Source of the DNA: a virus | Lineage: Duplodnaviria > Heunggongvirae > Uroviricota > Caudoviricetes | Strand: one strand, 5' to 3' | Length of the DNA: 21,881 nucleotides | Virus record (IMG/VR): IMGVR_UViG_2671180357_000006 | Location: 1 to 21,881 of that record | Shown: in pieces, positions 1,076 through 17,784 of the stretch | Layout: each line of letters starts with the position of its first letter | How positions within the stretch are numbered: the stretch's first letter is position 1 | The notes under the pieces: generated by a model | Told to the model about the DNA's origin: nothing | The model's input: only the letters and a program-made list of their open reading frames with translations | The model's database searches: none | Translations under genes and position numbers: made by a program

Positions 1076-3415
1076 TTAATCTTCTAATTCATCTGTCGGT
1101 GATGTCTTCTCGCGCCTGTCATCTATTGCCTGTAACGCAGCAATGATTTCAGCTAATGGCTTCTCCCGGTACATCTCGACGATCTGTGATTTGGTGTATT
1201 TCTTCTCGCCAATTTCCACACGCCCGCTGGCGCTCTTGGGCAGGTATCCTTCCTCCAGCATGTATTCGACCAGAGACTCGACGACGTCCAGCCCGCGAGT
1301 CGGGTCGAAGTAGAATTTCCATGAGCATTTGCCAAACGGAGGCGCGACTTTGTTTTTAATGCACTCGGCGCCAACGTCCTGTCCGATCTTCTCTTTGCCA
1401 TCCTTCATGACGGATGCACCCAGACGGATGCGCACCGACGCGTAGAACTTCGGAGAGTCGCCACCCGGAGACGTAGTCGGATCGCCAAACATCACACCAA
1501 TTTTGGTACGCACCTGGTTCAAGAAGATGATGCACGCGTTGTACTTACGCGCCCAAAGCGCCAGAGTAGGGAAGTTCGCACTTGTCGCGCGCGCCAGCGC
1601 CGTGTTGTCGTTCATGTTCAGCTGATCTTTGTCCTTCGCAGTGCCTTCTGCCATCTTGTCGAACTTCTCAGCCTTCGAGTTCGGAACCATCGACGCCAGA
1701 GAGTCGGCTACGATGCAGATAGGGGCTGTTTCCGGAATAAGCTCTTCGTCGCGCACCAGCTTGAGGATTGTGCCGATCAGCTCTACGGAGTCTTCGAAGG
1801 TATCCGGCTGTTTGTAGACCCACTGACCGTCGTCTTCGTCGGCGTTCAGTCCGTTCGCTACCGCCAGACCAACGTCGAAACTGTTTTCGTGGTCAAGGAA
1901 TACGGCCAGACCATCCTGTTTTTGTGCTGACACCATCGCAGCCGTCGCGAGGAATGTGTTGTGGCTGATAATCCCGTTAGACCAGAAAGAGTGTGTTTCC
2001 GGCATCGCTACGTCGAACGTTGGTGCTTCACCTTCCTCAATAGCCACGACTTCGTCGTAGAACAAGTTAGAGTCAATTACCGCTGCCAGTTGTGCAAACA
2101 GATGCTCGTTAAAACGATTCTTTCTGCCAATGAAGGAGACATAGATTTCTCGCAGTTTGTCTATTCCGACACGATCGCCGCGGCCAATAACGTGATCTAC
2201 CAGAACGTAGTCTTTACGAGAGGTCTTGGTGAGTGACTCGTAGAGTGATTTCACTAAGCCGCTGATGTGCGGAACGTAGCCTAAATAAGTGCGGTCAAAA
2301 CTAATGTCCCGTTTGGTTGCCACTGCTAAACGAGCCGGAGACTCGAACCCAATCGTTGACAGGAAAAGGTCGTAGTTAGAGCCACTGAATGACAGCCGGT
2401 AATATATGTTTTTATAACCTGCGACGTGTTTTTCAGAGATAGTTGACGTAATCCCCAGATTCAGGAGCATGAGGCGAATTTGCTGTAGCAGCAGCCCACT
2501 CGCGCTCACAACCTCAATGCAGCGACCATCATTGACGTGGCATTCCAGCTCAAAGTAGCCGCGAAGGAATGCAATTTGAGCCTCGCTATTGGCGCGACGC
2601 ACACTCAACGGAACCTGCTTGCCAGCAGCTTTCTCATACTCCAGACCATATTCTTTAAAAAGCAGCGAACGCACCTCTTTGCTAAACAGCACATGGTCTT
2701 CCGAGCCGTTATGTTTTCTCGTAACTGGCATCTTGTCTGATACCAGCGAAATGAGGCGGTAGTACTCATCCTTGATGAATGGATCTGTGTTAGAAACATG
2801 CACAGAATTTTCAGAGGCCACGTATCCGTCAGCAATTAAATAGCCCATCAGTTTTGCGATATTGGCATCCAAGTGCTGATCGCCGAATTGATGTGTGCCA
2901 ACCATTGAAGGAATAGTGTCGCCTACACTGATTTTTTCAGCATACCGCCAGACGATATTGCCTAAGTCGTCAACCACACGAATTGGGTGACGGAACGTAG
3001 CCTCGATGTAACCCCCTGATGCCAGCTTAATGCGCTTGAATTTGCGACGGTTGTTCCATGTCAGGTGTGAGGTCTTCTCTATCACGCCATTTTCATTGAT
3101 GAGTCCAACGTTATGCTCTACATCGCGAGTAGTGCATGTTGCTTTGTGCCCCTCAATCTCAAACAGTTCTTTCACTGTTACCATTCCACGCTCCGTCAGC
3201 AGCATGGTGTCTGCGGTAACACATTTCCCCGCGCTTGGTGGCCCGAAGACTTCAACGATACGCCCACATGGAAAACCACCGTCGTAACGTCCGGAAATGG
3301 CTTTGTTCAGTGGAGGGAAACCGGAGTCAATCCAGTGGGAGACCTTCTGAATCTCGTCATTGCTGCCGATTTTCTTTTTCAGCGCCAGTGCCAGTGCGGA
3401 TTTGCCTTTTGCCAT
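1076..3415 (-). CDS. RecA-family recombinase interrupted by an intein (779-aa precursor; exteins total 357 aa)
   Basis: N-extein ends GRIVEVFGPPSAGK and the C-extein starts TFLATAAMV, which rejoin to a Walker A motif GPPSAGKT. The C-extein carries FLNQVRTKIGVMFGDPTTSPGGDSPKFYASVRIRLG, closely matching the bacterial RecA core [36 protein letters not shown]. AGGAG RBS 7 nt upstream of the ATG. Confidence 0.9.
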   Translation of the reverse strand: MAKGKSALALALKKKIGSNDEIQKVSHWIDSGFPPLNKAISGRYDGGFPCGRIVEVFGPPSAGKCVTADTMLLTERGMVTVKELFEIEGHKATCTTRDVEHNVGLINENGVIEKTSHLTWNNRRKFKRIKLASGGYIEATFRHPIRVVDDLGNIVWRYAEKISVGDTIPSMVGTHQFGDQHLDANIAKLMGYLIADGYVASENSVHVSNTDPFIKDEYYRLISLVSDKMPVTRKHNGSEDHVLFSKEVRSLLFKEYGLEYEKAAGKQVPLSVRRANSEAQIAFLRGYFELECHVNDGRCIEVVSASGLLLQQIRLMLLNLGITSTISEKHVAGYKNIYYRLSFSGSNYDLFLSTIGFESPARLAVATKRDISFDRTYLGYVPHISGLVKSLYESLTKTSRKDYVLVDHVIGRGDRVGIDKLREIYVSFIGRKNRFNEHLFAQLAAVIDSNLFYDEVVAIEEGEAPTFDVAMPETHSFWSNGIISHNTFLATAAMVSAQKQDGLAVFLDHENSFDVGLAVANGLNADEDDGQWVYKQPDTFEDSVELIGTILKLVRDEELIPETAPICIVADSLASMVPNSKAEKFDKMAEGTAKDKDQLNMNDNTALARATSANFPTLALWARKYNACIIFLNQVRTKIGVMFGDPTTSPGGDSPKFYASVRIRLGASVMKDGKEKIGQDVGAECIKNKVAPPFGKCSWKFYFDPTRGLDVVESLVEYMLEEGYLPKSASGRVEIGEKKYTKSQIVEMYREKPLAEIIAALQAIDDRREKTSPTDELED
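1958..3223 (-). other. intein (422 aa) with LAGLIDADG homing-endonuclease domain, inserted in the RecA P-loop between K and T of GPPSAGK/T
   Basis: Starts with Cys (CVTADTMLL) and ends SHN, followed by Thr as the +1 extein residue. Two LAGLIDADG-type motifs inside (LMGYLIADGYV and FLRGYFELECHV). Removing it restores a canonical RecA P-loop. Confidence 0.8.
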
Positions 3416-6365: not shown

Positions 6366-6926
6366 ATGGGGATAATTCTGATAACCTGTAGTCAGTACTG
6401 CGTAGTCGCAGATGCTCTGTATAGCCACGGTTGCGATGATGCGCTCATTTGCTACTACGGAAACTCAGTGTATGTAGAATTTGACCGAGAAGCTAAATCT
6501 TTAGATGAAGCAATCGAATCGGCAATCCTTGATATTGAAACAGCAGGCATTGGCGCAGTGGTGGAATCGGTAGATTCAGCACTGGTAGGCTTGAGCGATA
6601 TTGCTCAACTCTCTGGCTTAACGCGCCAGGCTATTACTCTGCTTAAAGACGGATTACGTGGCAAAGGTGATTTTCCTTGCCCTGTTCAGCGTATCAGCGG
6701 TCAGTCTCCACTCTGGGACTGGGCGGAAGTCGCTAAATGGTTGAACGACTGCGGTCGTCTTGACAGCAAAGACGAAAAAGCACGGGAAGAACTGGTGCGT
6801 AACGCGCGCACATTGAGTACGTGGAATCTTGCCCTGCGTATAAGATCGTTGGGCGACATTCATGAGGTGGAGAGAGTTACTCGCTCACTCAGTCACTCGC
6901 AAGACTGCGAAAAAATTTGCGCATAA
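6366..6926 (+). CDS. putative HTH DNA-binding protein, possibly HicB-like antitoxin fold (186 aa)
   Basis: The only plus-strand gene inside the minus-strand module. Central segment GLSDIAQLSGLTRQAITLLKDG looks like a helix-turn-helix; the N-terminal part loosely resembles HicB-type antitoxins. Ends at a strong bidirectional terminator. Confidence 0.5.
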   Translation: MGIILITCSQYCVVADALYSHGCDDALICYYGNSVYVEFDREAKSLDEAIESAILDIETAGIGAVVESVDSALVGLSDIAQLSGLTRQAITLLKDGLRGKGDFPCPVQRISGQSPLWDWAEVAKWLNDCGRLDSKDEKAREELVRNARTLSTWNLALRIRSLGDIHEVERVTRSLSHSQDCEKICA

Positions 6927-6953
6927 AACCCGCCAAATGGCGGGTTTTTCTTT
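6925..6953. terminator. bidirectional rho-independent terminator between convergent genes
   Basis: AAAA-CCCGCC-AAAT-GGCGGG-TTTTTCTTT: 6-bp GC stem with an A-run on one side and a T-run on the other, lying between the plus-gene stop (6926) and the DnaE stop (6955). Confidence 0.8.
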
Positions 6954-6954
6954 A

Positions 6955-9900
6955 TTACTTATTTATCGTCTCCGCAATATCAGTCAGAATGGCCTCCAGT
7001 CGCTCTCCTTCTTCCGGTCGGAAGTAAAGGATATTCGGGTTAAATCCGTAGAAAACGGTCGCATCCAGCTCCGGCAGATACTCTTTGCGTCCAACCAGGT
7101 CGGATGGTTTGCTCTTGTTGTTGAAGAGCGACGTCGCCCGGCTGCCACACGTCAGCACATAGGTCGGACGCACCAGATTTATCTCTTCACGCATAAAGTC
7201 GGTGAACTGGCCGATCTCGTCTTTGGTGTAGTCCTTCTCTTTGTCCTTCACCTTTTTGCACACGCCTGTGACGTAGAGATCGCCCATGCGCAGATCGCCT
7301 GCAGTAAGCAACTTCGCCTTAAAGTCGTCGTAGCCGTTCTCCATGAAGTAGCCGGTACGCCCATCATTGCCGTTCGCGTTGTCCAGAATGACCATGATTT
7401 TCGGCTTAATGCCAATGCTTGGGCGGATCAGGTCGTCTCCCAGACCCATTTCGGCCGCCATGCGAGTCATCAGTACATTCACCTCGGCAGAGCGCTTAGG
7501 GTTCATCTCGAACGGTCGAGAGGCTTTTACAGCGTCGATCACCAGATTGCCCATCAACTCTGCCTGGTCGCGCAGTCGTTCCGGATCTGTCGCTGGCAGA
7601 CTGCCAGACTCAATCGATGCGAACGCACCGACTTTTTGCAGCGACTCGCGTACCCGGCTGTTACATGCACGCTTCTCGACCGCTTCCTCAAATTGCGCCA
7701 GTGATTCGAATTTGCCGCCAACTTTCTCACGCGCTCTCATGATGGCCTGGCAACCATTCTCAGAGCAGCCTTTCACAGCAGAGAATGGTGCATACAGAAC
7801 CTGACTGCCGTCTTCCAGCGTGCGGATCTCAATTCGGTTAGATGACACGTTAACGTCTGGTGGCAATACGCGAATGCCATAGGTCAGCGCATCTTTAACC
7901 AGCCCCTGGTGCTTATCCTCGCCCAGAATGGTGAGCGCAGCAGCGAAGAACTCAGCAGGGTAATGTGTCTTTAACCACATAGACTGATAGCTGATTAAAG
8001 AATAAGCAACACTGTGTGATTTGTTGAAGGCATATCCACCGAACTTCTCAAAGGCGTCCCATATTTCTTGGGCTTTTTTCTTACTGAGACCTTCTTGTTC
8101 AGAGACGATCTCCACGTAGTCTATGCCGTCACTAATAGCCTCGCTGTAGCTTCTACGCTTACCGTCTGAGCAATCCAGTTTTGCGTGTTTGTGAACCTCT
8201 ACAGTACCTCCATTTTTGAGTGACAGTGTCACCCAGCCTGCTTGTGCTCGTTCTACAAAATCGCTGCCGATCGCTTTCATCTTATCCATGTTCTTTTTAC
8301 CGATAGCGGAACGCAGAGCGTCTGCTTCGGCCATAGAGAACCCGGCAAGTACTCGGGAACTTTGCATGATTTGTTCCTGATAGAGCAAAACACCATTAGT
8401 CTCCCGGGTGACTTCCTCAAGACGCGGATGAATTGAATGTGGAGCCATGAAGCCTTTGGCCACGGAGACATAGTCGTCCAACATGCCGGATTGGATCGGG
8501 CCAGGTCGGAAGAGTGCGGTCGTGGCGACAACGGTTTTGAAGCTCATTGGCTCAATGCCACCGCCCAGATCTTTAAGCAGCTTGCGCATGGGGCCGGACT
8601 CCAGCTGGAATACGCCCTGCGTGTACCCTGCAGCGAACCCATCCAGAACCTTACGATCGTCCAGTGGAATAGCATCGAGATTGATGTCTTCCCCGGTACT
8701 CTCTTTGATGTAGCGTTTCGCGCTATCCAGCAGATCGAGCGTTGCCAGACCGAGAACGTCCAGCTTAATCAGCCCCATCGCCTCGCAGTAACGTTTATCG
8801 AACGCAATACAGCGAGCGTTGCCACGCAGCTCGACGGGCGTGCGCTCTACCAGTGGAACGCCAGCGACGATCATCCCCGCAGCGTGACGACCAAAACCAC
8901 GCATCAGGCTTTGCAGCTTACACGCCGCTTTGAACGCTTCCGGGTTTTTCGTGGCGTATTTGTCCAGGCTGGCCAGTTGCTCGCGCAGCTCTTCCAGAGA
9001 CAGGCTATCGTCTTCCAGATTCTTGAACTCTTTGGATACCGCCATATCCGCAGCGTCGACACCGTAAATACGCGCAGTGTCTCGCAGCGCAGAAGCGGCG
9101 CCCAGATAGGTGAAGTTTGGAATACCGGCAACGTAATCTTCGCCATAGCGTTCATTCAGATACTCGATCACCTCATGACGACGTGCCTGGCTGAAGTCCA
9201 GATCCGCATCCGGTAAGTCAAGACGTTCAGGGTTGATGAAACGCTCAAACAGAAGACCGTGACGGATAGGATCGACGTTGGTTATGCCTATGCACCACGC
9301 CACCAGAGAACCGGCAGAGGAACCACGACCTGGCCCAACCGGTATTCCTGTTTCACGGCAGTGATTCATCAGATCGCGTACCATCAGGAAGTAGCCACAG
9401 AAGCCCAGACGGGTCAGTGTGTCCATTTCGTACTTCAGTCGCTCAACATACACTCGGTGCTCAGAAGCCGGTGGTGTGTAGCCAAACTCTTTAGTAGTTA
9501 GACGCTTGCGTAGCCCCGCGACAGCCAGCTTCATCAGCGTTGCAGGCTCGTCGTCTGCCATCTTGGGCAGTGCTGGTGGCAGTTCATGCCAGCGCCATGT
9601 GCAGGCTTCAATAATGGTGTCCTGCGTTGTTGAGACCATTGCAGCTGTTACCGGTACGCCCATGCGAACGGAGAAGGCTTTCAGCGCTTCAAGGAGATGG
9701 CGACGACCATTAACAGCGTTATCTCGCTGGTGGGGGATGCGCAGACGATGCGGCTGGTCGATTTTGATGTTGTTCGTAACCATGTGCGCAATGTCTTTAA
9801 TGTCAGCGTCGTCGATCGCTTCGTAATAAGCGGGATAGAACGCCACTGGCTCTATTTTCAGTGCGCTCGCCACTTTCATCGCCCGGACGTTAATCTGGTC

Positions 9901-10461
9901 GTAGAATGGGGTAGGGTGCGGATAAACCACGCTGTAGAAGTTATCGCGTCCTCCAGCTGTCACCAGCGTCCCGATAATCTTTGCGAAGTCCCGGCGCTGG
10001 AATACACTGCCAATGTCGGACGTCAGCAGGATGATGTTGCCTTTGGCATATGCGGCCGCCAGCTGGTCAAGTGCCAGACGCGGAACAAAGTAGAATTGCT
10101 CGCGCTTGTTGGCTAAGGTCATCAGTTCGCACACGTCGCGATAACCTTGCTCATTCTTTATCAGTGCCGTGAAGCAGTAGCTTCGATCACGCACCAATGA
10201 TTCCATACATCCTCCTGACTCTTTCGCCAGGCGGGCGCGATGCTCGTATGTCGGATCGTCGACCACATTCAGCTTAACACCACAAATAACCGCCATGTCG
10301 TCGCCAGCGGCACGCTGCAGGGGGATCACACTGGCAATGTTCATGCTGTCAGCGGAAATGACAGCGGTGTAGCCAGCGTCTCTCGCGATTTTCACCGCGT
10401 TTTCTGCTTTTAGAGCTGACTCTCCCAGGGAGAAGTCAGTTCTGACCATCAGAGCCTTCAT
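6955..10461 (-). CDS. DNA polymerase III alpha-type (DnaE family, C-family polymerase), 1168 aa, with a non-canonical C-terminal domain
   Basis: Strong DnaE motifs: [10 protein letters not shown]...[27 protein letters not shown]...[21 protein letters not shown] (palm with catalytic aspartates), FRPGP, [42 protein letters not shown]. The N-terminal PHP-like region lacks the His pairs. Confidence 0.92.
   Translation of the reverse strand: [1168 protein letters not shown]
6958..7404 (-). other. C-terminal ~150-aa domain of the DnaE-like protein resembling a family-4 uracil-DNA glycosylase fold with degenerate catalytic motifs
   Basis: [18 protein letters not shown]...LYVTGVCKK...[17 protein letters not shown]...[14 protein letters not shown] aligns by eye with family-4 UDG (LVLVGEGPGEEEDKTGRPF...VYITNIVKCRPP...IVPLGAVAA...FPMFHPAYLLRNP); GEGPG is replaced by DNANG and HP by NP. 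It sits where bacterial DnaE has its OB-fold and tau-binding region. Confidence 0.55.
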
Positions 10462-10641: not shown

Positions 10642-11877
10642 TTAACCAAAGATCTTCTGAACCACTTCACGCGCTGCCTGTGCAGACGTGGATGGAAGTT
10701 TATTGATAAACGACTTTTCGATGCCGGCAGAGAAATCACCGCGCATCATTCCGATTTTGGCGGACAGCAGCAGCTCACGAGGCCCGATTGGCTGGCTAAT
10801 CTGATGCTTTTCATAACCTTCACGGATAAGATTCGCGAACTTCACCATCTTCTCGGCGTATTCGCGGATGACGCCTGCTTCAGCCAGCATGTTGACTTCT
10901 GCCTTCGTACTCATGTACTTCACGTTTGAAACAATGCCAAAACGCGAGAAGTTCGCTGCGTTCTGGATGTTTGTGCCTTGATAGAGACCTGTTTCGTCGC
11001 CAGAGCCGTTAGTGTTGCCAGTGCCAATGAAGGCAAAGCGTTTATGCGGGGTGATGCGGCGCCAGTCCGCAGTTGCCTCTTTGATGATCAGCGGCTCTCC
11101 TTCAAGAACTGGCTGATACACACCCAGAATCTGCGGGAACGCGAAGTCATATTCATCAGCGAGGTAAACCCAACCATTTTTCATCGCCAGCGCTAGTAAA
11201 CCCGGTTCGAAATAGGTGGAACCATCGCGAGCGAGGATCTGGCCTGTAACGTGCGCTTCCTCCATAGACGCCGTATGCTGGGCGCGGATCAGTGGTCGAT
11301 TTAGCAGGGCACATAGCTGCGTAGGAAGAGAAGATTTACCGGTTCCTGCATGGCCCCAGAGATAACCCGGGATTCCGATTTCCAGCATCATGAAGATGTC
11401 TTTAATCAGGTCGAAGTCGCCATACACATAGTTCTTCTTCGCTTCCGGTACGAACTCCGGATATGGCGTGTTGACGTTGACTGTCACCTGTAGTGGCTTT
11501 CCGCGTGGCGTTCCCAGCTCTTTGATCGTTATGCCAAGCAGCTCGTGCGCGGCCACCAGTTCGGTCTTGTATTCGACCGTTCCTGCGTAGCCCGGATGTG
11601 CGCTAATCTCCGCTACTTTTCCTTCGCCTGAATGCTTTTCGGCACGCTTCTCATTGAGTTTGGCCAGTGCCGTGCGAGAGATCGTTGGTTCATCTGGAAA
11701 CGCAGAGGTGTACATCTTCACCACTTCGTCCACGTCCAGACCCTTCGCAGACTCAGGAATATTCTCGCAACGGCCCATAGAGATATGGGATTTCAGGTAA
11801 TGAAAGGATTTGCCACACCACTTGCAGACGATGGCTTCCGGCAAATGTTCTTCTTGCTGTAGTGCAGTAGCGGTCAT
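10642..11877 (-). CDS. CobS/MoxR-like AAA+ ATPase with N-terminal zinc-finger-like extension (411 aa)
   Basis: Walker A GHAGTGKSS, Walker B region VYLADEYDFAFPQILGVYQPVLEG, sensor region TNIQNAANFSRF as in CobS/MoxR. N-terminal CKWCGKSFHYLKSHISMGRC Cys/His cluster. TAAGGA RBS upstream. Confidence 0.8.
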   Translation of the reverse strand: MTATALQQEEHLPEAIVCKWCGKSFHYLKSHISMGRCENIPESAKGLDVDEVVKMYTSAFPDEPTISRTALAKLNEKRAEKHSGEGKVAEISAHPGYAGTVEYKTELVAAHELLGITIKELGTPRGKPLQVTVNVNTPYPEFVPEAKKNYVYGDFDLIKDIFMMLEIGIPGYLWGHAGTGKSSLPTQLCALLNRPLIRAQHTASMEEAHVTGQILARDGSTYFEPGLLALAMKNGWVYLADEYDFAFPQILGVYQPVLEGEPLIIKEATADWRRITPHKRFAFIGTGNTNGSGDETGLYQGTNIQNAANFSRFGIVSNVKYMSTKAEVNMLAEAGVIREYAEKMVKFANLIREGYEKHQISQPIGPRELLLSAKIGMMRGDFSAGIEKSFINKLPSTSAQAAREVVQKIFG

Positions 11878-11974: not shown

Positions 11975-14206
11975 TTACCCAAGAATGATACGAGATAGCT
12001 CAGTGACAACTGACGGCCCTAACTCTTCTACGCTGTTTACCAGCGCGTAATTTTTGTAGAAACGTCGTGGCTCGTCGGTCAGAATCCCGATAGCCATCAG
12101 ATCGATGTCGCTCAAGGTCTCAATTTCTTTGGTGACGGTTCGTAAATGCTGATGGAATCCACTACCTGTAGCACATGGCTCCCCATCACTCATAACCAGC
12201 ATGATCTTTTTGTCCTCCATTCGCCCTGCAAACAGGGTAGCCAGTTGCGCGATACTCTCACCATCGACGTTATTGAGCAGGGGGAACGTCTCACATACGC
12301 ATCCCATGCGAGCACGGATCTCTGGAGAGTTTGCTTTCTCATTCCAGTTTTTGATAATGGGCAGCATGAGCGCCTCGAAGCGTGTAAACCCGCGCTTCGA
12401 CCTAGTTTCATAATCTGGGCTACCGAACGTGGTAAAGCCGGTGATGATGTTGGGGACATTGATACGATCTAAAGCATCCGTAATGGTATAGGCACTGGCT
12501 AGGGCCAGTTGAATCTTCACGCCATCCATTGAGCCGGACAAGTCGATGACCTGCTGGACACACGCGTTCACCGCTCTATGGTCTTCCTTCTTGCGGAACA
12601 CTCGGTCGTCGTTCATTGCCAGACGATACAGGCTCGCGCCATGTATCCGCCCACGCCTCTGACCAGGTATAAACTGAACTCGGTTGCGGCTGGCGATGGC
12701 CCGCTCTAGGTCTTTGGCCAGCGTCGAAGAAACGCCTGCAGACAGATGTTTTTCGATTTTCAGTTCAAAGAGTTTTCTGCCTTCTGGCACCATACGGTAG
12801 CGGTCGACTGGTGAGTGCATTGGTATTGCACCGAACGTCTTTCTGGTGCGCTTCACATGCTCTTCGGCTCCATCAATCAACCCGATAAAGTCGTATGATC
12901 GATCGTATGGCCGATAATCAGAAGGTGAGACGCTCATAAGCTCTTTGCTGATGGTGGCCGACAGTGCGTCTTCGGTCATTTCACCGATTCCGTCTTCCAT
13001 CTCGTCGAGCGCCTTTAGCGCCTCCTCCAGAGTCATTTCATCCGGCGCAGGAACAAAGCCAGACTCACTGTCTTTGGGCACTTCCGCACCATCTTTATTT
13101 TTTTTGCCTTCGACGTCTTCTTCTTCAGTTTCCCCACGATCAGTATCGGAGTCCTCACCGCCATCACCATCGGTGTCAGAGTCACTTGATTTCATGCCGA
13201 TAGCATCGGATTCTGGGGTGTCTCCTGACTCTTCGTGGCCTGCTTCTGTATATTTACTTTCTGTATCACTAATATCTTTAACGTGTGTAGGTAAGTCCTT
13301 ATCTAACGAATCAGGCAAATCGGAATCCCCAGAATCTTCCTCTTCTGATGCATCATCTTCTCGTTCTTCCTTGTCATCGCCTTCGCCTTTGGCAGGCTTA
13401 GATGCAGAGTCACCATGAGACGGTTCGTCACCTGATTCTGGCGTTTCCTCGGACTCGTCTTTGCTCTCCGACGGCTTTCTGGAAGATGATTTAAGTTCTG
13501 GTAATTTGCCCTCTGGCTTGTCTTTCATATCCTGCATGATTTGGGCTATAGCAGCAGCGACCTTCACGCAATCCTCAGTGTTCGACATATTGCGAACGGC
13601 CACGTCTATACCATGCTCCTTTAGTAAGGCTACCGGCCTCTCGATAAGGCGCCAGTGTTCTTCCATAAAATCGATGAAGGGGCTTTGTCCATCCCAGGCG
13701 CGGACGACCGGGCAAAGGAAGAATTTCAAAAACAATTCACGCTGGTCTCCGTGACAGGCTAAAACCGCTTCTGGTACTTTATTCCTGAAGTATTTGTCGA
13801 TAACCAGACTCTGTGTTGCAAGTAAATTACGCCGGGTTCCGTTAAAGACCTGCCCCATTCTGCGTTCAATAAAAACGTCTTCCAGCGCATTCCAAAGCCC
13901 CGTAGACGGAGCCTTTCCTCTTTCGTGCATCTGCATTGCGACTTTCGGTTCAGTAAAGAGAATATGGGCCACCTCATGGTCGAGAAAACCACGCACTGCG
14001 TTCATGAGGGTTGGCGACGCGTCGTCCGGTATAGATGGGATGTTTACCAGCACTGGTTCGCCGCGCCGGTTATAGCGGACATATGCTTCATTGCCTCGTT
14101 CTGCAACAGGTATCTGTTTACCTGAAAGCATCGCTACAACTCGTTTTACACAGTCGCGAAAATCCTGCACCTCTTTCAGTACAGCTTTGGTGGTTTTTTT
14201 GGACAT
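11975..14206 (-). CDS. CobT-like von Willebrand factor A (vWA) protein with HExxH motif and long acidic linker (about 744 aa from the RBS-supported start)
   Basis: C-terminal vWA domain with MIDAS DLSGSM and SDGEP; central ~145-aa Asp/Glu/Ser-rich low-complexity region; N-terminal LDHEVAHILF (HExxH). Start reassigned to the ATG at 14204-14206 preceded by AAGGGA; the track's ATG at 14275 lies inside an inverted repeat. Confidence 0.8.
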   Translation of the reverse strand: MSKKTTKAVLKEVQDFRDCVKRVVAMLSGKQIPVAERGNEAYVRYNRRGEPVLVNIPSIPDDASPTLMNAVRGFLDHEVAHILFTEPKVAMQMHERGKAPSTGLWNALEDVFIERRMGQVFNGTRRNLLATQSLVIDKYFRNKVPEAVLACHGDQRELFLKFFLCPVVRAWDGQSPFIDFMEEHWRLIERPVALLKEHGIDVAVRNMSNTEDCVKVAAAIAQIMQDMKDKPEGKLPELKSSSRKPSESKDESEETPESGDEPSHGDSASKPAKGEGDDKEEREDDASEEEDSGDSDLPDSLDKDLPTHVKDISDTESKYTEAGHEESGDTPESDAIGMKSSDSDTDGDGGEDSDTDRGETEEEDVEGKKNKDGAEVPKDSESGFVPAPDEMTLEEALKALDEMEDGIGEMTEDALSATISKELMSVSPSDYRPYDRSYDFIGLIDGAEEHVKRTRKTFGAIPMHSPVDRYRMVPEGRKLFELKIEKHLSAGVSSTLAKDLERAIASRNRVQFIPGQRRGRIHGASLYRLAMNDDRVFRKKEDHRAVNACVQQVIDLSGSMDGVKIQLALASAYTITDALDRINVPNIITGFTTFGSPDYETRSKRGFTRFEALMLPIIKNWNEKANSPEIRARMGCVCETFPLLNNVDGESIAQLATLFAGRMEDKKIMLVMSDGEPCATGSGFHQHLRTVTKEIETLSDIDLMAIGILTDEPRRFYKNYALVNSVEELGPSVVTELSRIILG

Positions 14207-14259
14207 TAGAATTCCCTTGTTGTTAAAACAATTTGTTTTCTGATGTGCGTAATTTATCA

Positions 14260-14292
14260 CTGTACGAACAGGCATCTAATCTGTTCGTACAG
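14260..14292. promoter_or_regulatory. perfect 12-bp inverted repeat (candidate operator) in the promoter region of the CobT/CobS/DnaE gene block
   Basis: CTGTACGAACAG-N9-CTGTTCGTACAG, 54-86 bp upstream of the CobT-like start, overlapping a plausible -35/-10 on the minus strand. Confidence 0.4.
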
Positions 14293-14310
14293 GCGCTAGA
14301 GAGGATGGGA

Positions 14311-14318
14311 GGGGGGGG
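14311..14318. repeat. G8 homopolymer tract (C8 on the coding strand of the flanking operon)
   Basis: Directly visible run of eight G between the stop of the 70-aa gene (14319) and the inverted repeat. Confidence 0.9.
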
Positions 14319-14531
14319 TTAAATTGTGCGGACGGCTACTGAACCGCAGCCGGTATTGATGAGAGTGAAGCACTTGCCCTTTAGCTCAAAGATGTATGCG
14401 GTTGCGTCTTTCATGTCAAGTAACAAAGACTTTGTTGGCAGTTCAGTGAGTATGGCTGCTGCCCCATCATCGTCAATTGAAATCGTATGTCCGACCTCAA
14501 GGGCGATCAAATTAGAAGTTATTTTTTTCAT
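14319..14531 (-). CDS. hypothetical small protein (70 aa)
   Basis: First gene transcribed leftward from the divergent AT-rich control region; GGA-type RBS; the antisense ORF 14326..14655 is less plausible. Confidence 0.4.
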   Translation of the reverse strand: MKKITSNLIALEVGHTISIDDDGAAAILTELPTKSLLLDMKDATAYIFELKGKCFTLINTGCGSVAVRTI

Positions 14532-14787
14532 TTCATATCATCCAACTGAACACGTAAATACCTTGCAATACTACTACCTATTGTATCAATACGGAATACT
14601 TATGTATCAAATACAACTTAGTTTTAAGTTCTTAAATGAGTTATTTTTTAGATAGTTGTCTATTAGTGAAGCCTTTTGCGGTCAGTAAACCTATGTAAAA
14701 AAATAGATAAGTCTTTACAACACTAACCTTTGATGTAATATCAGTAAGCACTTACCAAATAAAATCAAAACACGCAGGTTGATAATT

Positions 14788-15177
14788 ATGGCTACCAACG
14801 AAACAAAAGAAGCTAAAGTAAGTCGCTACGCTGCTTACATTGACGCTTTAATCGCGATTTCTCCGAAAAGCCAGGCGACCATCGCGAAAGAAGCAGGCTA
14901 TAAAAACCCTAACAATCTTTCACTTATCAAGAGCGGCAAAATCCCGCTTCCGATCGACAAGGTCAGAGCGTTGGCTAAAGCATTGGATGCCGATTCGGTC
15001 CGATTGATGCTAATGGTGCTGGAAGAGCGTCATCCAGAGCTGTTAGCGTTTTTTCGCGACGAAGGCACAGCCCCTCTGACTAAAGATGAAAAACTAGTTC
15101 TGGAAGCCTTCCGTCGACGTTTCGGTGACCAACGTGGTGCGTCGGAGCGGGTTGTTGAGGCAATCAAGTCGCTATGA
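14788..15177 (+). CDS. putative HTH transcriptional regulator (130 aa from ATG; the track's TTG start at 14779 is less likely)
   Basis: SQATIAKEAGYKNPNNLSLIKSGKIPLPIDKVRALAKAL looks like a helix-turn-helix; AGG 9 nt upstream of the ATG; transcribed divergently from the 70-aa gene across a 256-bp AT-rich region; stop overlaps the integrase stop. Confidence 0.6.
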   Translation: MATNETKEAKVSRYAAYIDALIAISPKSQATIAKEAGYKNPNNLSLIKSGKIPLPIDKVRALAKALDADSVRLMLMVLEERHPELLAFFRDEGTAPLTKDEKLVLEAFRRRFGDQRGASERVVEAIKSL

Positions 15178-16275
15178 GAAATTTACACGGATTAGCTCAG
15201 TAGCGAGTCGATCTCCCTTGAACTTATGATCTATCTCCTCTAAATCCTGTTTCTCTACGATTGATGCGATGTACGCCGAAAAACTGTTTAAGGCGTCTCG
15301 CATCTCGTCTATATAATCGTGTCGATCGTATACTCGATCTATCCCCTCAAGACTGTGGTTCATAATTTTGCGGGATACCTCCTGACTTATGCCTAACGCG
15401 GGGAAGTAACTACGCGCAGTACGACGCAAATCTCGGGGAGTAAATGGCTCAAGCTCCATCAACTCTGGACGTTCTAAAATCCTTCTCAACGCCTGTGATA
15501 TGGCCACCTTAGACATTGGCACATCCTCACCCTGTTTCTTGTTTGAAGGAACAAGCCACTGGCTGCCTTTTCCGTATTTGATCAGCTCCTCAACACATTT
15601 GCGCATTAGCGGGCTTAATGGTAACGAGTGCTGGCGAGCCGATTTATTCCTCGTTCCTTGATTCCATAAATTATATTCGAGGTTGAATTCTGATCTTTTA
15701 GCTCGGAGCACTTCATCTGGTCGTCTGGCCGCTACAAGACATAATCTGGCCGCCCACTTTGTACCCTCACATACGTTGAAGTAGTCCCATACATTCCAAA
15801 AGACCCAGACCTCTGCGTCGGTCAGTTTGCGCTCGCGAGGCGTGGGCTTCGCGCCACCGGCTACTCTGTTAAGCGACATATCGTTCAATGGGGATGTATC
15901 AATTAAGCCCTGAAATGCACACCAACTGAGAAACTGCTTCATCAGCGAGAACACACGTCTGCCCTGGACGATCTTGCCCTCAAGTATTAATGGGTTCACC
16001 AGCTGGTTGACTAAAACCCTACTAATGTCACTTACTTTTACTTCACAGATATGCGGCATTACATGTATCAAAATACAATGAACAGCTATTTCAGGTCGAC
16101 GTCTCGTTATCAGCAAAGATAAGCGAGTGAATAACATGAATGCGGAAGAAAACGACATGTCACCGTCGAAATTGGTGGTCGACACTGCTGACAAGCCGGA
16201 AGCGCGTTCGAGATACTCGATGGCTTCTCTAGAGGTGTTTTCTGCTGCGCGTGCTTTATCAAAAGTGTTTTTCAT
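15172..16275 (-). CDS. int: tyrosine recombinase / integrase, P4-type catalytic domain; N-terminal arm-binding domain not recognisable
   Basis: Catalytic-domain motifs LTDAEVWVFWN, RLCLVAARRPDEVLRAKRSEFNL, TPRDLRRTARSY, IMNHSLEGIDRVYDRHDY (R..H-x-x-R..Y). The first ~70 residues do not resemble the usual P4-type N-terminus. Confidence 0.85.
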   Translation of the reverse strand: MKNTFDKARAAENTSREAIEYLERASGLSAVSTTNFDGDMSFSSAFMLFTRLSLLITRRRPEIAVHCILIHVMPHICEVKVSDISRVLVNQLVNPLILEGKIVQGRRVFSLMKQFLSWCAFQGLIDTSPLNDMSLNRVAGGAKPTPRERKLTDAEVWVFWNVWDYFNVCEGTKWAARLCLVAARRPDEVLRAKRSEFNLEYNLWNQGTRNKSARQHSLPLSPLMRKCVEELIKYGKGSQWLVPSNKKQGEDVPMSKVAISQALRRILERPELMELEPFTPRDLRRTARSYFPALGISQEVSRKIMNHSLEGIDRVYDRHDYIDEMRDALNSFSAYIASIVEKQDLEEIDHKFKGDRLATELIRVNFS

Positions 16276-16303: not shown

Positions 16304-16323
16304 TACTGTATTTATAAACAGTA
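16304..16323. promoter_or_regulatory. LexA (SOS) box-like palindrome over the putative integrase promoter
   Basis: TACTGTATTTATAAACAGTA matches the gammaproteobacterial consensus TACTGTATATATATACAGTA at 18 of 20 positions (CTGT-N8-ACAG). It lies 29 bp upstream of the integrase ATG, abutting a -35 TTGATC, 16-bp spacer, -10 TAATAT on the minus strand. Confidence 0.55.
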
Positions 16324-16372: not shown

Positions 16373-16407
16373 AAATGATTCCATACCTTACAAGTATGGA
16401 ATCATTT
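16373..16407. repeat. perfect 14-bp inverted repeat / hairpin in the integrase-cassette intergenic region
   Basis: AAATGATTCCATAC-N7-GTATGGAATCATTT. No clean U-tract on either strand, so terminator, recombinase-binding site and att core are all possible. Confidence 0.4.
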
Positions 16408-17631: not shown

Positions 17632-17705
17632 GGATTTTGCGCTGAAAAAAGTGTTGCTACGATGCTTAGAAGCAATGGTTAAAAAACGTCTGCCGTGTCT
17701 ATCAC

Positions 17706-17780
17706 AGCGCTGAACGGTCTGGCGACATTTGCGGAGTCTTTCGTTCGGACGGTGATGGCGAATCCAAACCGTTCAGCGCT
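17706..17780. repeat. 13-bp perfect inverted repeat flanking a 49-bp spacer, directly 3' of the tRNA
   Basis: AGCGCTGAACGGT (17706-17718) and ACCGTTCAGCGCT (17768-17780); the tRNA CCA end is at 17785-17787. Confidence 0.5.
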
Positions 17781-17784
17781 ATGT

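Follow-up and report, generated by a model that had tools for sequence, protein, structure and literature searches.

Here we describe a perfect inverted repeat at 14260-14292 of a 21,881-nt stretch of viral DNA (hereafter the window; positions 1 to 21,881 of IMG/VR record IMGVR_UViG_2671180357_000006), placed just before a block of CobT-like, CobS-like and DnaE genes. The window belongs to an SSU5-like Escherichia coli phage-plasmid: it is 99.9% identical to plasmid pEC21Z137-115K (NZ_CP101235, 115.2 kb), and its CobS/CobT genes are 92% identical to those of Salmonella phage SSU5. All genes around the repeat, with the exception of that for an XRE regulator, are on the minus strand. Downstream lies the CobT-like gene (11975-14206; Pfam CobT and CobT_C), the first of the block, followed by those for a CobS-like AAA ATPase (10642-11877) and DnaE (6955-10461). 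The CobT-like start codon (ATG, 14204-14206) is preceded by a Shine-Dalgarno (SD) sequence, AAGGGAA, at 14212-14218, and is the start chosen by PGAP in a 99.5%-identical plasmid. On the upstream side is the gene for a 70-amino-acid (70-aa) protein of phrog_2627 (14319-14531; stop codon 14319-14321), a group of unknown function. Neither Pfam nor PHROGs gave this protein a functional family beyond phrog_2627, and its AlphaFold2 model, built on a 10-sequence alignment, was too poor for use (mean pLDDT 46). Divergent from the 70-aa gene is that for an XRE repressor/regulator (14788-15177, plus strand), and beyond it a tyrosine recombinase (integrase) gene (15172-16275, minus strand), which converges on the XRE gene with a 6-bp overlap at 15172-15177. 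Direct repeats of the form TAT(T)TGATACA between the XRE and 70-aa genes (14585-14615, minus strand) are candidate XRE operators, unrelated in sequence to the inverted repeat.

The repeat comprises two 12-bp arms, CTGTACGAACAG (14260-14271) and CTGTTCGTACAG (14281-14292), around a 9-nt spacer, GCATCTAAT (14272-14280). Its sequence, coordinates and placement, 54-86 bp upstream of the CobT start at 14206, are exactly those given in a first-pass annotation of the window. The sense (minus-strand) RNA, CUGUACGAACAG-AUUAGAUGC-CUGUUCGUACAG, folds into a hairpin of about -18.5 kcal/mol (z = -5.5 against shuffles), which starts 26 nt past the stop codon of the 70-aa gene and whose 12-bp stem gives it the stable stem-loop of an intrinsic terminator. 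In 300 dinucleotide shuffles of the window, perfect repeats with loops of 3-20 nt and arms no shorter than 12 bp were expected at 0.027 per window, 1.7% of the shuffles having any; hence, the repeat is more than a product of chance. It is also unique. No further copy of the 12-mer was found in the window at up to two mismatches, nor anywhere in the 115.2-kb NZ_CP101235, where the sole one-mismatch match is a lone arm inside a coding sequence; the first-pass annotation had suggested a search for such copies and had itself named their lack as counting against its proposal of a repressor operator. The core CGAACAG-N9-CTGTTCG has 119 matches in viral contigs, only five of which have the full CTGTA/TACAG arms, the rest being unrelated with unpaired flanks. 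An Rfam search of 13900-15000 (E <= 5) returned no family, only a spurious miRNA match. An RNase III site is unlikely, the stem being of only 12 bp. We also considered whether an ATG at 14275, inside the loop, might be another start for CobT or a leader, and rejected this: that ATG is absent from most lineages, and the SD and the ATG at 14206 are conserved.

A distant-mode search recovered the region in 286 plasmids of Enterobacter, Yersinia, Salmonella, Escherichia, Citrobacter, Cronobacter and Klebsiella. The hairpin is present in every relative examined, always between the stop codon of the 70-aa gene and the CobT start, and we observed it at the same position in the SSU5-like elements of E. 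coli, Salmonella (pHCM2), Yersinia pestis (pMT1), Enterobacter, Klebsiella, Cronobacter, Kluyvera and Buttiauxella. The gene order is unaltered in pMT1, pHCM2 and the Enterobacter and Cronobacter plasmids. The stretch that begins with the outer arm of the repeat and ends at the CobT start codon is a near-invariant block of the alignment, the 12-27 nt between repeat and stop codon being hypervariable; homology with diverged relatives stops at about 14294, just beyond the outer arm. Salmonella phage SSU5 (L001, 7322-7486) has no 70-aa gene, XRE regulator or integrase at the locus, yet its repeat is intact. All that is left of the 70-aa gene there is its final ~25 nt, followed by a tRNA-Asn, and tblastn found no homologue of the XRE repressor in the SSU5 record. 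The repeat is thus independent of the 70-aa, integrase and XRE proteins, and the type phage looks like a deletion derivative without this module.

Searches of viral and genome collections with the CobT protein recovered four clades, whose stems differ in sequence but occupy the same position. The pair CTGTACGAACAG / CTGTTCGTACAG is that of the window, SSU5, pMT1, pHCM2, Klebsiella and others; CTGCGCGAATGG / CTGTTCGCGCAG belongs to the type of the phage-plasmid Cyrano; TGCGCGtCAATG / CATTGCGCGCA to the elements L295-L298, with CobT 47-49% identical; and AAAAGCGTAYAG / CTRTACGCTTTT to Xenorhabdus szentirmaii, X. hominickii, Morganella psychrotolerans and L082, with CobT 37-52% identical. The loop measures 9 nt in three of the clades and 8 nt in the other. 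In a gap-free alignment of 20 distinct hairpins from the first, second and fourth clades (the TGCGCGtCAATG type of L295-L298 was looked at separately), 98.8% of the aligned cells are standard pairs, and both sides change in seven of the 12 pairs; sliding the partner by one to three columns as a control gave 26-48% pairing. The single-sided deviations, read on the sense strand, are seven G.U pairs (in Kluyvera sichuanensis, Cronobacter, the Cyrano type at two positions, Morganella, L082 and L296) and two A.C pairs (in L043 and L258), the latter both at the loop-closing pair. This asymmetry weakly favors a hairpin formed by the sense-strand RNA or by single-stranded DNA (p ~0.04-0.09).

The Xenorhabdus/Morganella clade presents the same synteny (checked in L076), namely an XRE-like gene, a divergent gene for a 71-aa homologue, the hairpin and CobT, and the loop and inner seven stem pairs of its hairpin are recognizably homologous to those of the window. 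In this clade a 9-bp stem stands between an A-run and a T-run, as AAAAAAA-GCGTATAG-CTTGACTGC-CTATACGC-TTTTTTT-ATTAT; the consensus is AAAAAA-GCGTAYAG-nTTGACTnC-CTRTACGC-TTTTTTT-ATTAT, with a T-run of T7-T8. Judged by this anatomy, the element looks like a textbook intrinsic terminator of the bidirectional type, which matches the full succession of A-run, stem and T-run. Its loop is at the same time a near-consensus -35 element, TTGACT, and its T-run merges into TATTAT; our promoter scanner scored TTGACT-16-TATTAT as a 10/12 sigma-70 promoter in both Xenorhabdus loci. The hairpin occurs once per contig in this clade. The terminator scanner that we used has a loop limit of 8 nt and is blind to 9-nt loops, so it speaks neither for nor against a terminator in the distant clade. 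A terminator closely precedes CobT in the more remote loci of alpha- and beta-proteobacteria too, and the order of terminator, promoter and palindromic operator before CobT may be general. As a separate observation, in such loci (L093, L094, L096 and L099) differing palindromes stand after the terminator, ~20-120 bp upstream of CobT; AGTCA-N5-TGACT occurs upstream of CobT in Paraburkholderia, Massilia and a Pseudomonadota metagenome-assembled genome, and AATCAAATTTGATT in Roseospira.

The first-pass annotation had the repeat overlapping a plausible promoter, and the comparison of relatives bears this out. Directly 3' of the hairpin is a predicted extended -10 element, TGaTAAATT (14251-14259, minus strand), which would set the transcription start at about 14244. 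TAnnnT keeps its T, A and final T in every SSU5-clade variant, in most of which TGn precedes it, and at least 10 further promoters of the plasmid have their -10 in the same register. The hairpin loop contains a -35-like hexamer, TTAGAT (14274-14279, minus strand), predicted from the alignments; its counterparts are TTGGCC, TTTGAT and TTAGTC in SSU5-type lineages and the TTGACT of the Xenorhabdus clade. A TTnG core is retained in the loop, 15-17 bp upstream of the -10, and three of the four clades have a -35-like TTnnnn there. The promoter scanner, which needs at least 9/12 matches, left the CobT promoter of the window unflagged. On the predicted coordinates the repeat would cover about -48 to -16 of the promoter, with its centre near -32. 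This arrangement is reminiscent of the late promoters of phage P1, in which a -10 is combined with a 9-bp inverted repeat near -22 and which are activated by Lpa and present in multiple copies. P1, too, is a phage-plasmid, and in both cases an inverted repeat replaces or overlaps a weak -35 beside a TAnnnT -10; the present repeat, by contrast, occurs once only and has its centre at about -32.

A second palindrome, AAAACAA-T-TTGTTTT (AAAACAAATTGTTTT), lies at 14225-14239, about +6 to +20 of the predicted transcript, and is a copy of a multi-copy motif, AAACAAnTTGTTT. The 115-kb plasmid has 17 copies of AAACAAnTTGTTT at up to one mismatch against 0.12 expected, the 16 others being at positions 43915, 46847, 74662, 74687, 83530, 84294, 85969, 86460, 86838, 87969, 89533, 89584, 91285, 91601, 95327 and 96525 of NZ_CP101235. 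Most are 10-60 bp upstream of gene starts, ~13 nt past a -10-like gATAATa/TATTAT with a TTTGnn -35 further up, and the genes behind them include those for a DnaB-like helicase, an AAA ATPase and many small genes at 83-97 kb. The palindrome is also found upstream of CobT in L295-L298. This makes the CobT upstream region part of a promoter family sharing an operator-like palindrome at about +6 to +20, and AAACAAnTTGTTT looks like the operator of a putative regulon extending across the phage-plasmid. In no other member of this promoter family is there a comparable hairpin over the -35; the repeat is an extra at the CobT promoter.

We tentatively propose, as the best of the available explanations, that the repeat is a terminator-derived hairpin, interleaved with the CobT/CobS/DnaE promoter, by which the upstream transcript is ended or insulated. 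The hairpin of the sense transcript would close the small immunity-side unit formed by the 70-aa gene and insulate the promoter of the replication operon, its 5' arm lying upstream of the -35, its loop holding the -35, its 3' arm filling the spacer and the extended -10 following directly. It would be derived from, or share its origin with, the canonical intrinsic terminator surviving in the Xenorhabdus/Morganella relatives; the simplest history would be a terminator-plus-promoter cassette at the junction of immunity and replication genes, of which the other three clades kept the stem and lost the U-tract. As the U-tract is gone in the SSU5 lineage, termination here is probably weak, partial or conditional, and the hairpin may alternatively pause RNA polymerase or shield the upstream RNA at its 3' end. 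Routine repression of the promoter would more likely be exerted via the AAACAAnTTGTTT palindrome at about +6 to +20. A repeat that is unique in 115 kb, and a Xenorhabdus hairpin found once per contig, suit a punctuation signal tied to position better than the operator of a regulon. Like intrinsic terminators in general, the repeat forms a stable stem-loop shortly after a stop codon at a transcription-unit boundary. The layout also resembles that of lambda nutR/tR1, which comes after cro and before O and P: in both, a divergent repressor and a small first gene are followed by a hairpin or termination signal and then by replication genes. This is an analogy of layout only, for we identified no boxA/boxB-like motifs and no N-like protein, and the stem is of 12 bp against 5 bp.

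Several observations weigh against this proposal. In the window the hairpin is followed by UGAUAAAUU and not by a U-tract, which three of the four clades likewise lack; the terminator scan of 13900-15300 found none; and canonical U-tract terminators serve elsewhere in the same plasmid. Efficient intrinsic termination is hence doubtful. The 9-nt loop is long for a terminator (8-9 nt across the clades against 3-5 nt), and, unlike in ordinary intrinsic terminators, the element is interleaved with a promoter. Further, both strands fold with similar energies, the strand asymmetry of the wobbles being suggestive at most. Lastly, the arms are invariant in sequence across lineages whose CobT is only 61-85% identical, in which loop and spacer positions vary; this would be equally expected of a protein-binding site.

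These observations keep in play, as a possible if doubtful alternative, a duplex-DNA operator or activator site for a dimeric regulator, centred near -32 and occluding the -35 and the spacer, with the different stems of the clades reflecting co-evolution of protein and site. This is close to the dimeric repressor operator of the first-pass annotation, of which the dyad over core promoter elements has held up, and the expectation of a cognate protein with several sites has not, there being a single copy in 115 kb. A perfect dyad with constant half-site spacing (9 nt in three clades) over the predicted -35 and spacer is what such a site would look like, and it gives the repeat a likeness to dyad-symmetric operators over promoters such as the LexA box (CTGT-N8-ACAG) and the lambdoid OR/OL sites; each arm of the repeat, moreover, begins with CTGT and ends with ACAG. 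The U-tract expected of a terminator is missing, and the weak -35 in this clade makes an additional layer of control plausible. Conversely, the repeat differs from these operators in its N4 in place of N8, its single copy per genome and stems that co-vary with G.U intermediates. It is the other palindrome, 20 bp downstream, that is the element's multi-copy operator-like motif. The repeat bears no likeness to the repeats of the XRE/70-aa divergent region, SSU5 retains it without the XRE, integrase and 70-aa genes, we identified no candidate for a protein that binds it, the mismatches are mainly sense-strand G.U, and the Xenorhabdus homologue has the A-run and T-run flanks of a terminator. Hence, a nucleic-acid hairpin is favored over a sequence-specific operator by the single copy, the variation of the stems with pairing kept, the G.U bias and the terminator-like distant homologue; a conserved hairpin of terminator ancestry fused to a promoter fits the data better.

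More ambitious, and in our estimate improbable, is an integrated device in which the -35 is held in the loop of the conserved 12-bp stem such that the structure gates the DnaE operon and switches the element between plasmid and lytic modes. The structure could be an RNA hairpin formed by read-through from an upstream unit under SOS or immunity control, a cruciform, or a hairpin bound by a specific factor such as the 70-aa protein. If true, the device would be common to pMT1, pHCM2 and the resistance-carrying phage-plasmids of E. coli. A related alternative, which we regard as slightly less probable still, is a structural switch at the DNA level, namely cruciform extrusion under negative supercoiling or a factor-bound hairpin that melts the -35 and spacer and so gates the promoter. 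The loop is just where the -35 falls in three of the four clades, its length hardly varies (9 nt in three, 8 nt in the other), the perfect 12-bp stem is long enough for extrusion, and G.T wobbles are tolerated in DNA hairpins too. A 9-nt loop on a stem of 50% GC, however, kinetically disfavors unaided extrusion, and the terminator-like flanks in one clade have a simpler explanation.

Very improbable is a lox-like 12-9-12 core site for the tyrosine recombinase encoded ~900 bp away (15172-16275), serving multimer resolution or integration. The repeat does share with loxP, FRT and dif its ~33 bp, two inverted arms (the geometry being close to that of 13-8-13 recombinase sites), short spacer, uniqueness in the plasmid and a recombinase gene nearby. 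Nevertheless, its 9-nt spacer carries the conserved promoter-like TTnG and is not a free crossover region, its arms show a G.U-type asymmetry, SSU5 keeps it without an integrase at the locus, and the Xenorhabdus homologue is flanked by a T-run and an A-run. A better 13-7-13 candidate, AATGATTCCATAC-N7-GTATGGAATCATT, lies at 16373-16407, ~100 bp upstream of the integrase gene. On the minus strand it reads AAATGATTCCATAC-TTGTAAG-GTATGGAATCATTT, a perfect 14-bp inverted repeat, and in all relatives examined its 13-bp arms are invariant, the 7-bp spacer being variable (TTGTAAG, CTATTAA, CTACTAT, minus strand). This site could be the lox-like core of the adjacent tyrosine recombinase, or else the terminator of the YafO operon. 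Beyond the YafO toxin-antitoxin genes, at 17703-17783, there is a 20-nt inverted repeat, CACAGCGCTGAACGGTCTGG / CCAAACCGTTCAGCGCTATG, 90% complementary and with 41 nt between its arms.

The least plausible of the readings, a slipped-strand phase-variation switch of the CobT promoter in the G8 tract at 14311-14318, is favored only by the differing tract length (C7, C8, C9) among near-identical E. coli plasmids, and is largely refuted by the position of the tract outside both the -35/-10 spacer and any coding sequence. Its interruption with A in close relatives and its absence from all other lineages also speak against such a switch, and one-nucleotide homopolymer length differences are a common assembly error too. 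The tract begins 19 bp from the repeat, as the first-pass annotation had it, and is a C8 run in the sense RNA, immediately after the 70-aa stop codon. That annotation had also suggested that changes in its length could alter promoter spacing. The tract falls at about -67 to -74 of the predicted promoter, ~32 bp upstream of the predicted -35; being outside the -35/-10 spacer and directly after a stop codon, its length alters neither promoter spacing nor reading frame. The suspected variation between isolates was borne out, in that close relatives have C7 (NZ_CP101235), C8 (the window), C9 (L061) and, in other near-identical E. coli elements, the forms CACCCCCC, CACACCCC and CACCACCCC; the switching role was not. 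A G8/C8 run occurs in 16% of the shuffles, and is thus unremarkable on its own. The tract is the lineage-specific extreme of a C-rich, G-poor, hypervariable spacer between the stop codon and the hairpin (14293-14318, minus strand), which is conserved in composition, its sense strand having 47% C and 11% G over 27 distinct variants, mostly 12-27 nt long. The spacer might serve Rho as a short loading region, keep clear of base-pairing with the stem, or itself pair with the purine-rich SD.

The CTGT-N4-ACAG arms of the repeat are not a LexA box, in keeping with the first-pass annotation. A real one, TACTGTATTTATAAACAGTA, is present at 16304-16323, ~30 bp upstream of the integrase start and 2 kb from the repeat; its CTGT-N8-ACAG (16306-16321; LexA consensus TACTGTATATATATACAGTA) is the only one in the window and in the plasmid. 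The box is conserved, with a variable spacer, in Cyrano, pMT1, pHCM2 and the Enterobacter and Cronobacter relatives, and it could explain the SOS inducibility reported for Cyrano. In that phage-plasmid, which is induced by ciprofloxacin, the XRE homologue CYRAN_45 is regarded as the master repressor and is expressed both in lysogeny and under ciprofloxacin induction, as per the LF82/Cyrano transcriptome, which holds no data on the hairpin (PMC9928086). The convergence and overlap of the integrase and XRE genes imply that transcription of the integrase, when SOS-induced, would cross the repressor gene in antisense and head for the 70-aa gene and the hairpin; a link between such antisense transcription from the LexA-controlled promoter and ciprofloxacin induction is speculative. 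For SSU5-type elements, no regulatory circuit is described in a 2024 review (PMC11652158).

Two further observations concern the remainder of the window. A canonical bidirectional terminator, AAAACCCGCCA-tt-TGGCGGGTTTT, lies at 6925-6948 between dnaE (minus strand) and the gene for a phrog_2620 DNA-binding protein (plus strand). In one near-identical plasmid, CP099103, the annotation of an open reading frame of 779 aa (1076-3415, minus strand) is 'recombinase RecA'; in another, NZ_CP101235, it is 'LAGLIDADG family homing endonuclease'. The conflict between the two annotations suggests a RecA-like gene interrupted by an intein or a homing endonuclease.

The SSU5-like phage-plasmids include pMT1 of Y. 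pestis, pHCM2 of Salmonella Typhi and many resistance-carrying elements of E. coli, Klebsiella and Enterobacter. Should the hairpin modulate read-through into the DnaE operon, it would bear on the copy number of these elements and on how they go over to lytic replication; were it no more than a decayed terminator, the finding would be an ordinary one. The G8 tract has no evident consequence. The present analysis nevertheless yields a map of the control region before the replication genes with four elements, namely the promoter-fused hairpin, the candidate operator AAACAAnTTGTTT in 17 copies, the LexA box and the lox-like integrase site. The last three, which emerged as by-products, are of more use than the repeat itself and together outline the control region of a clinically widespread plasmid family.

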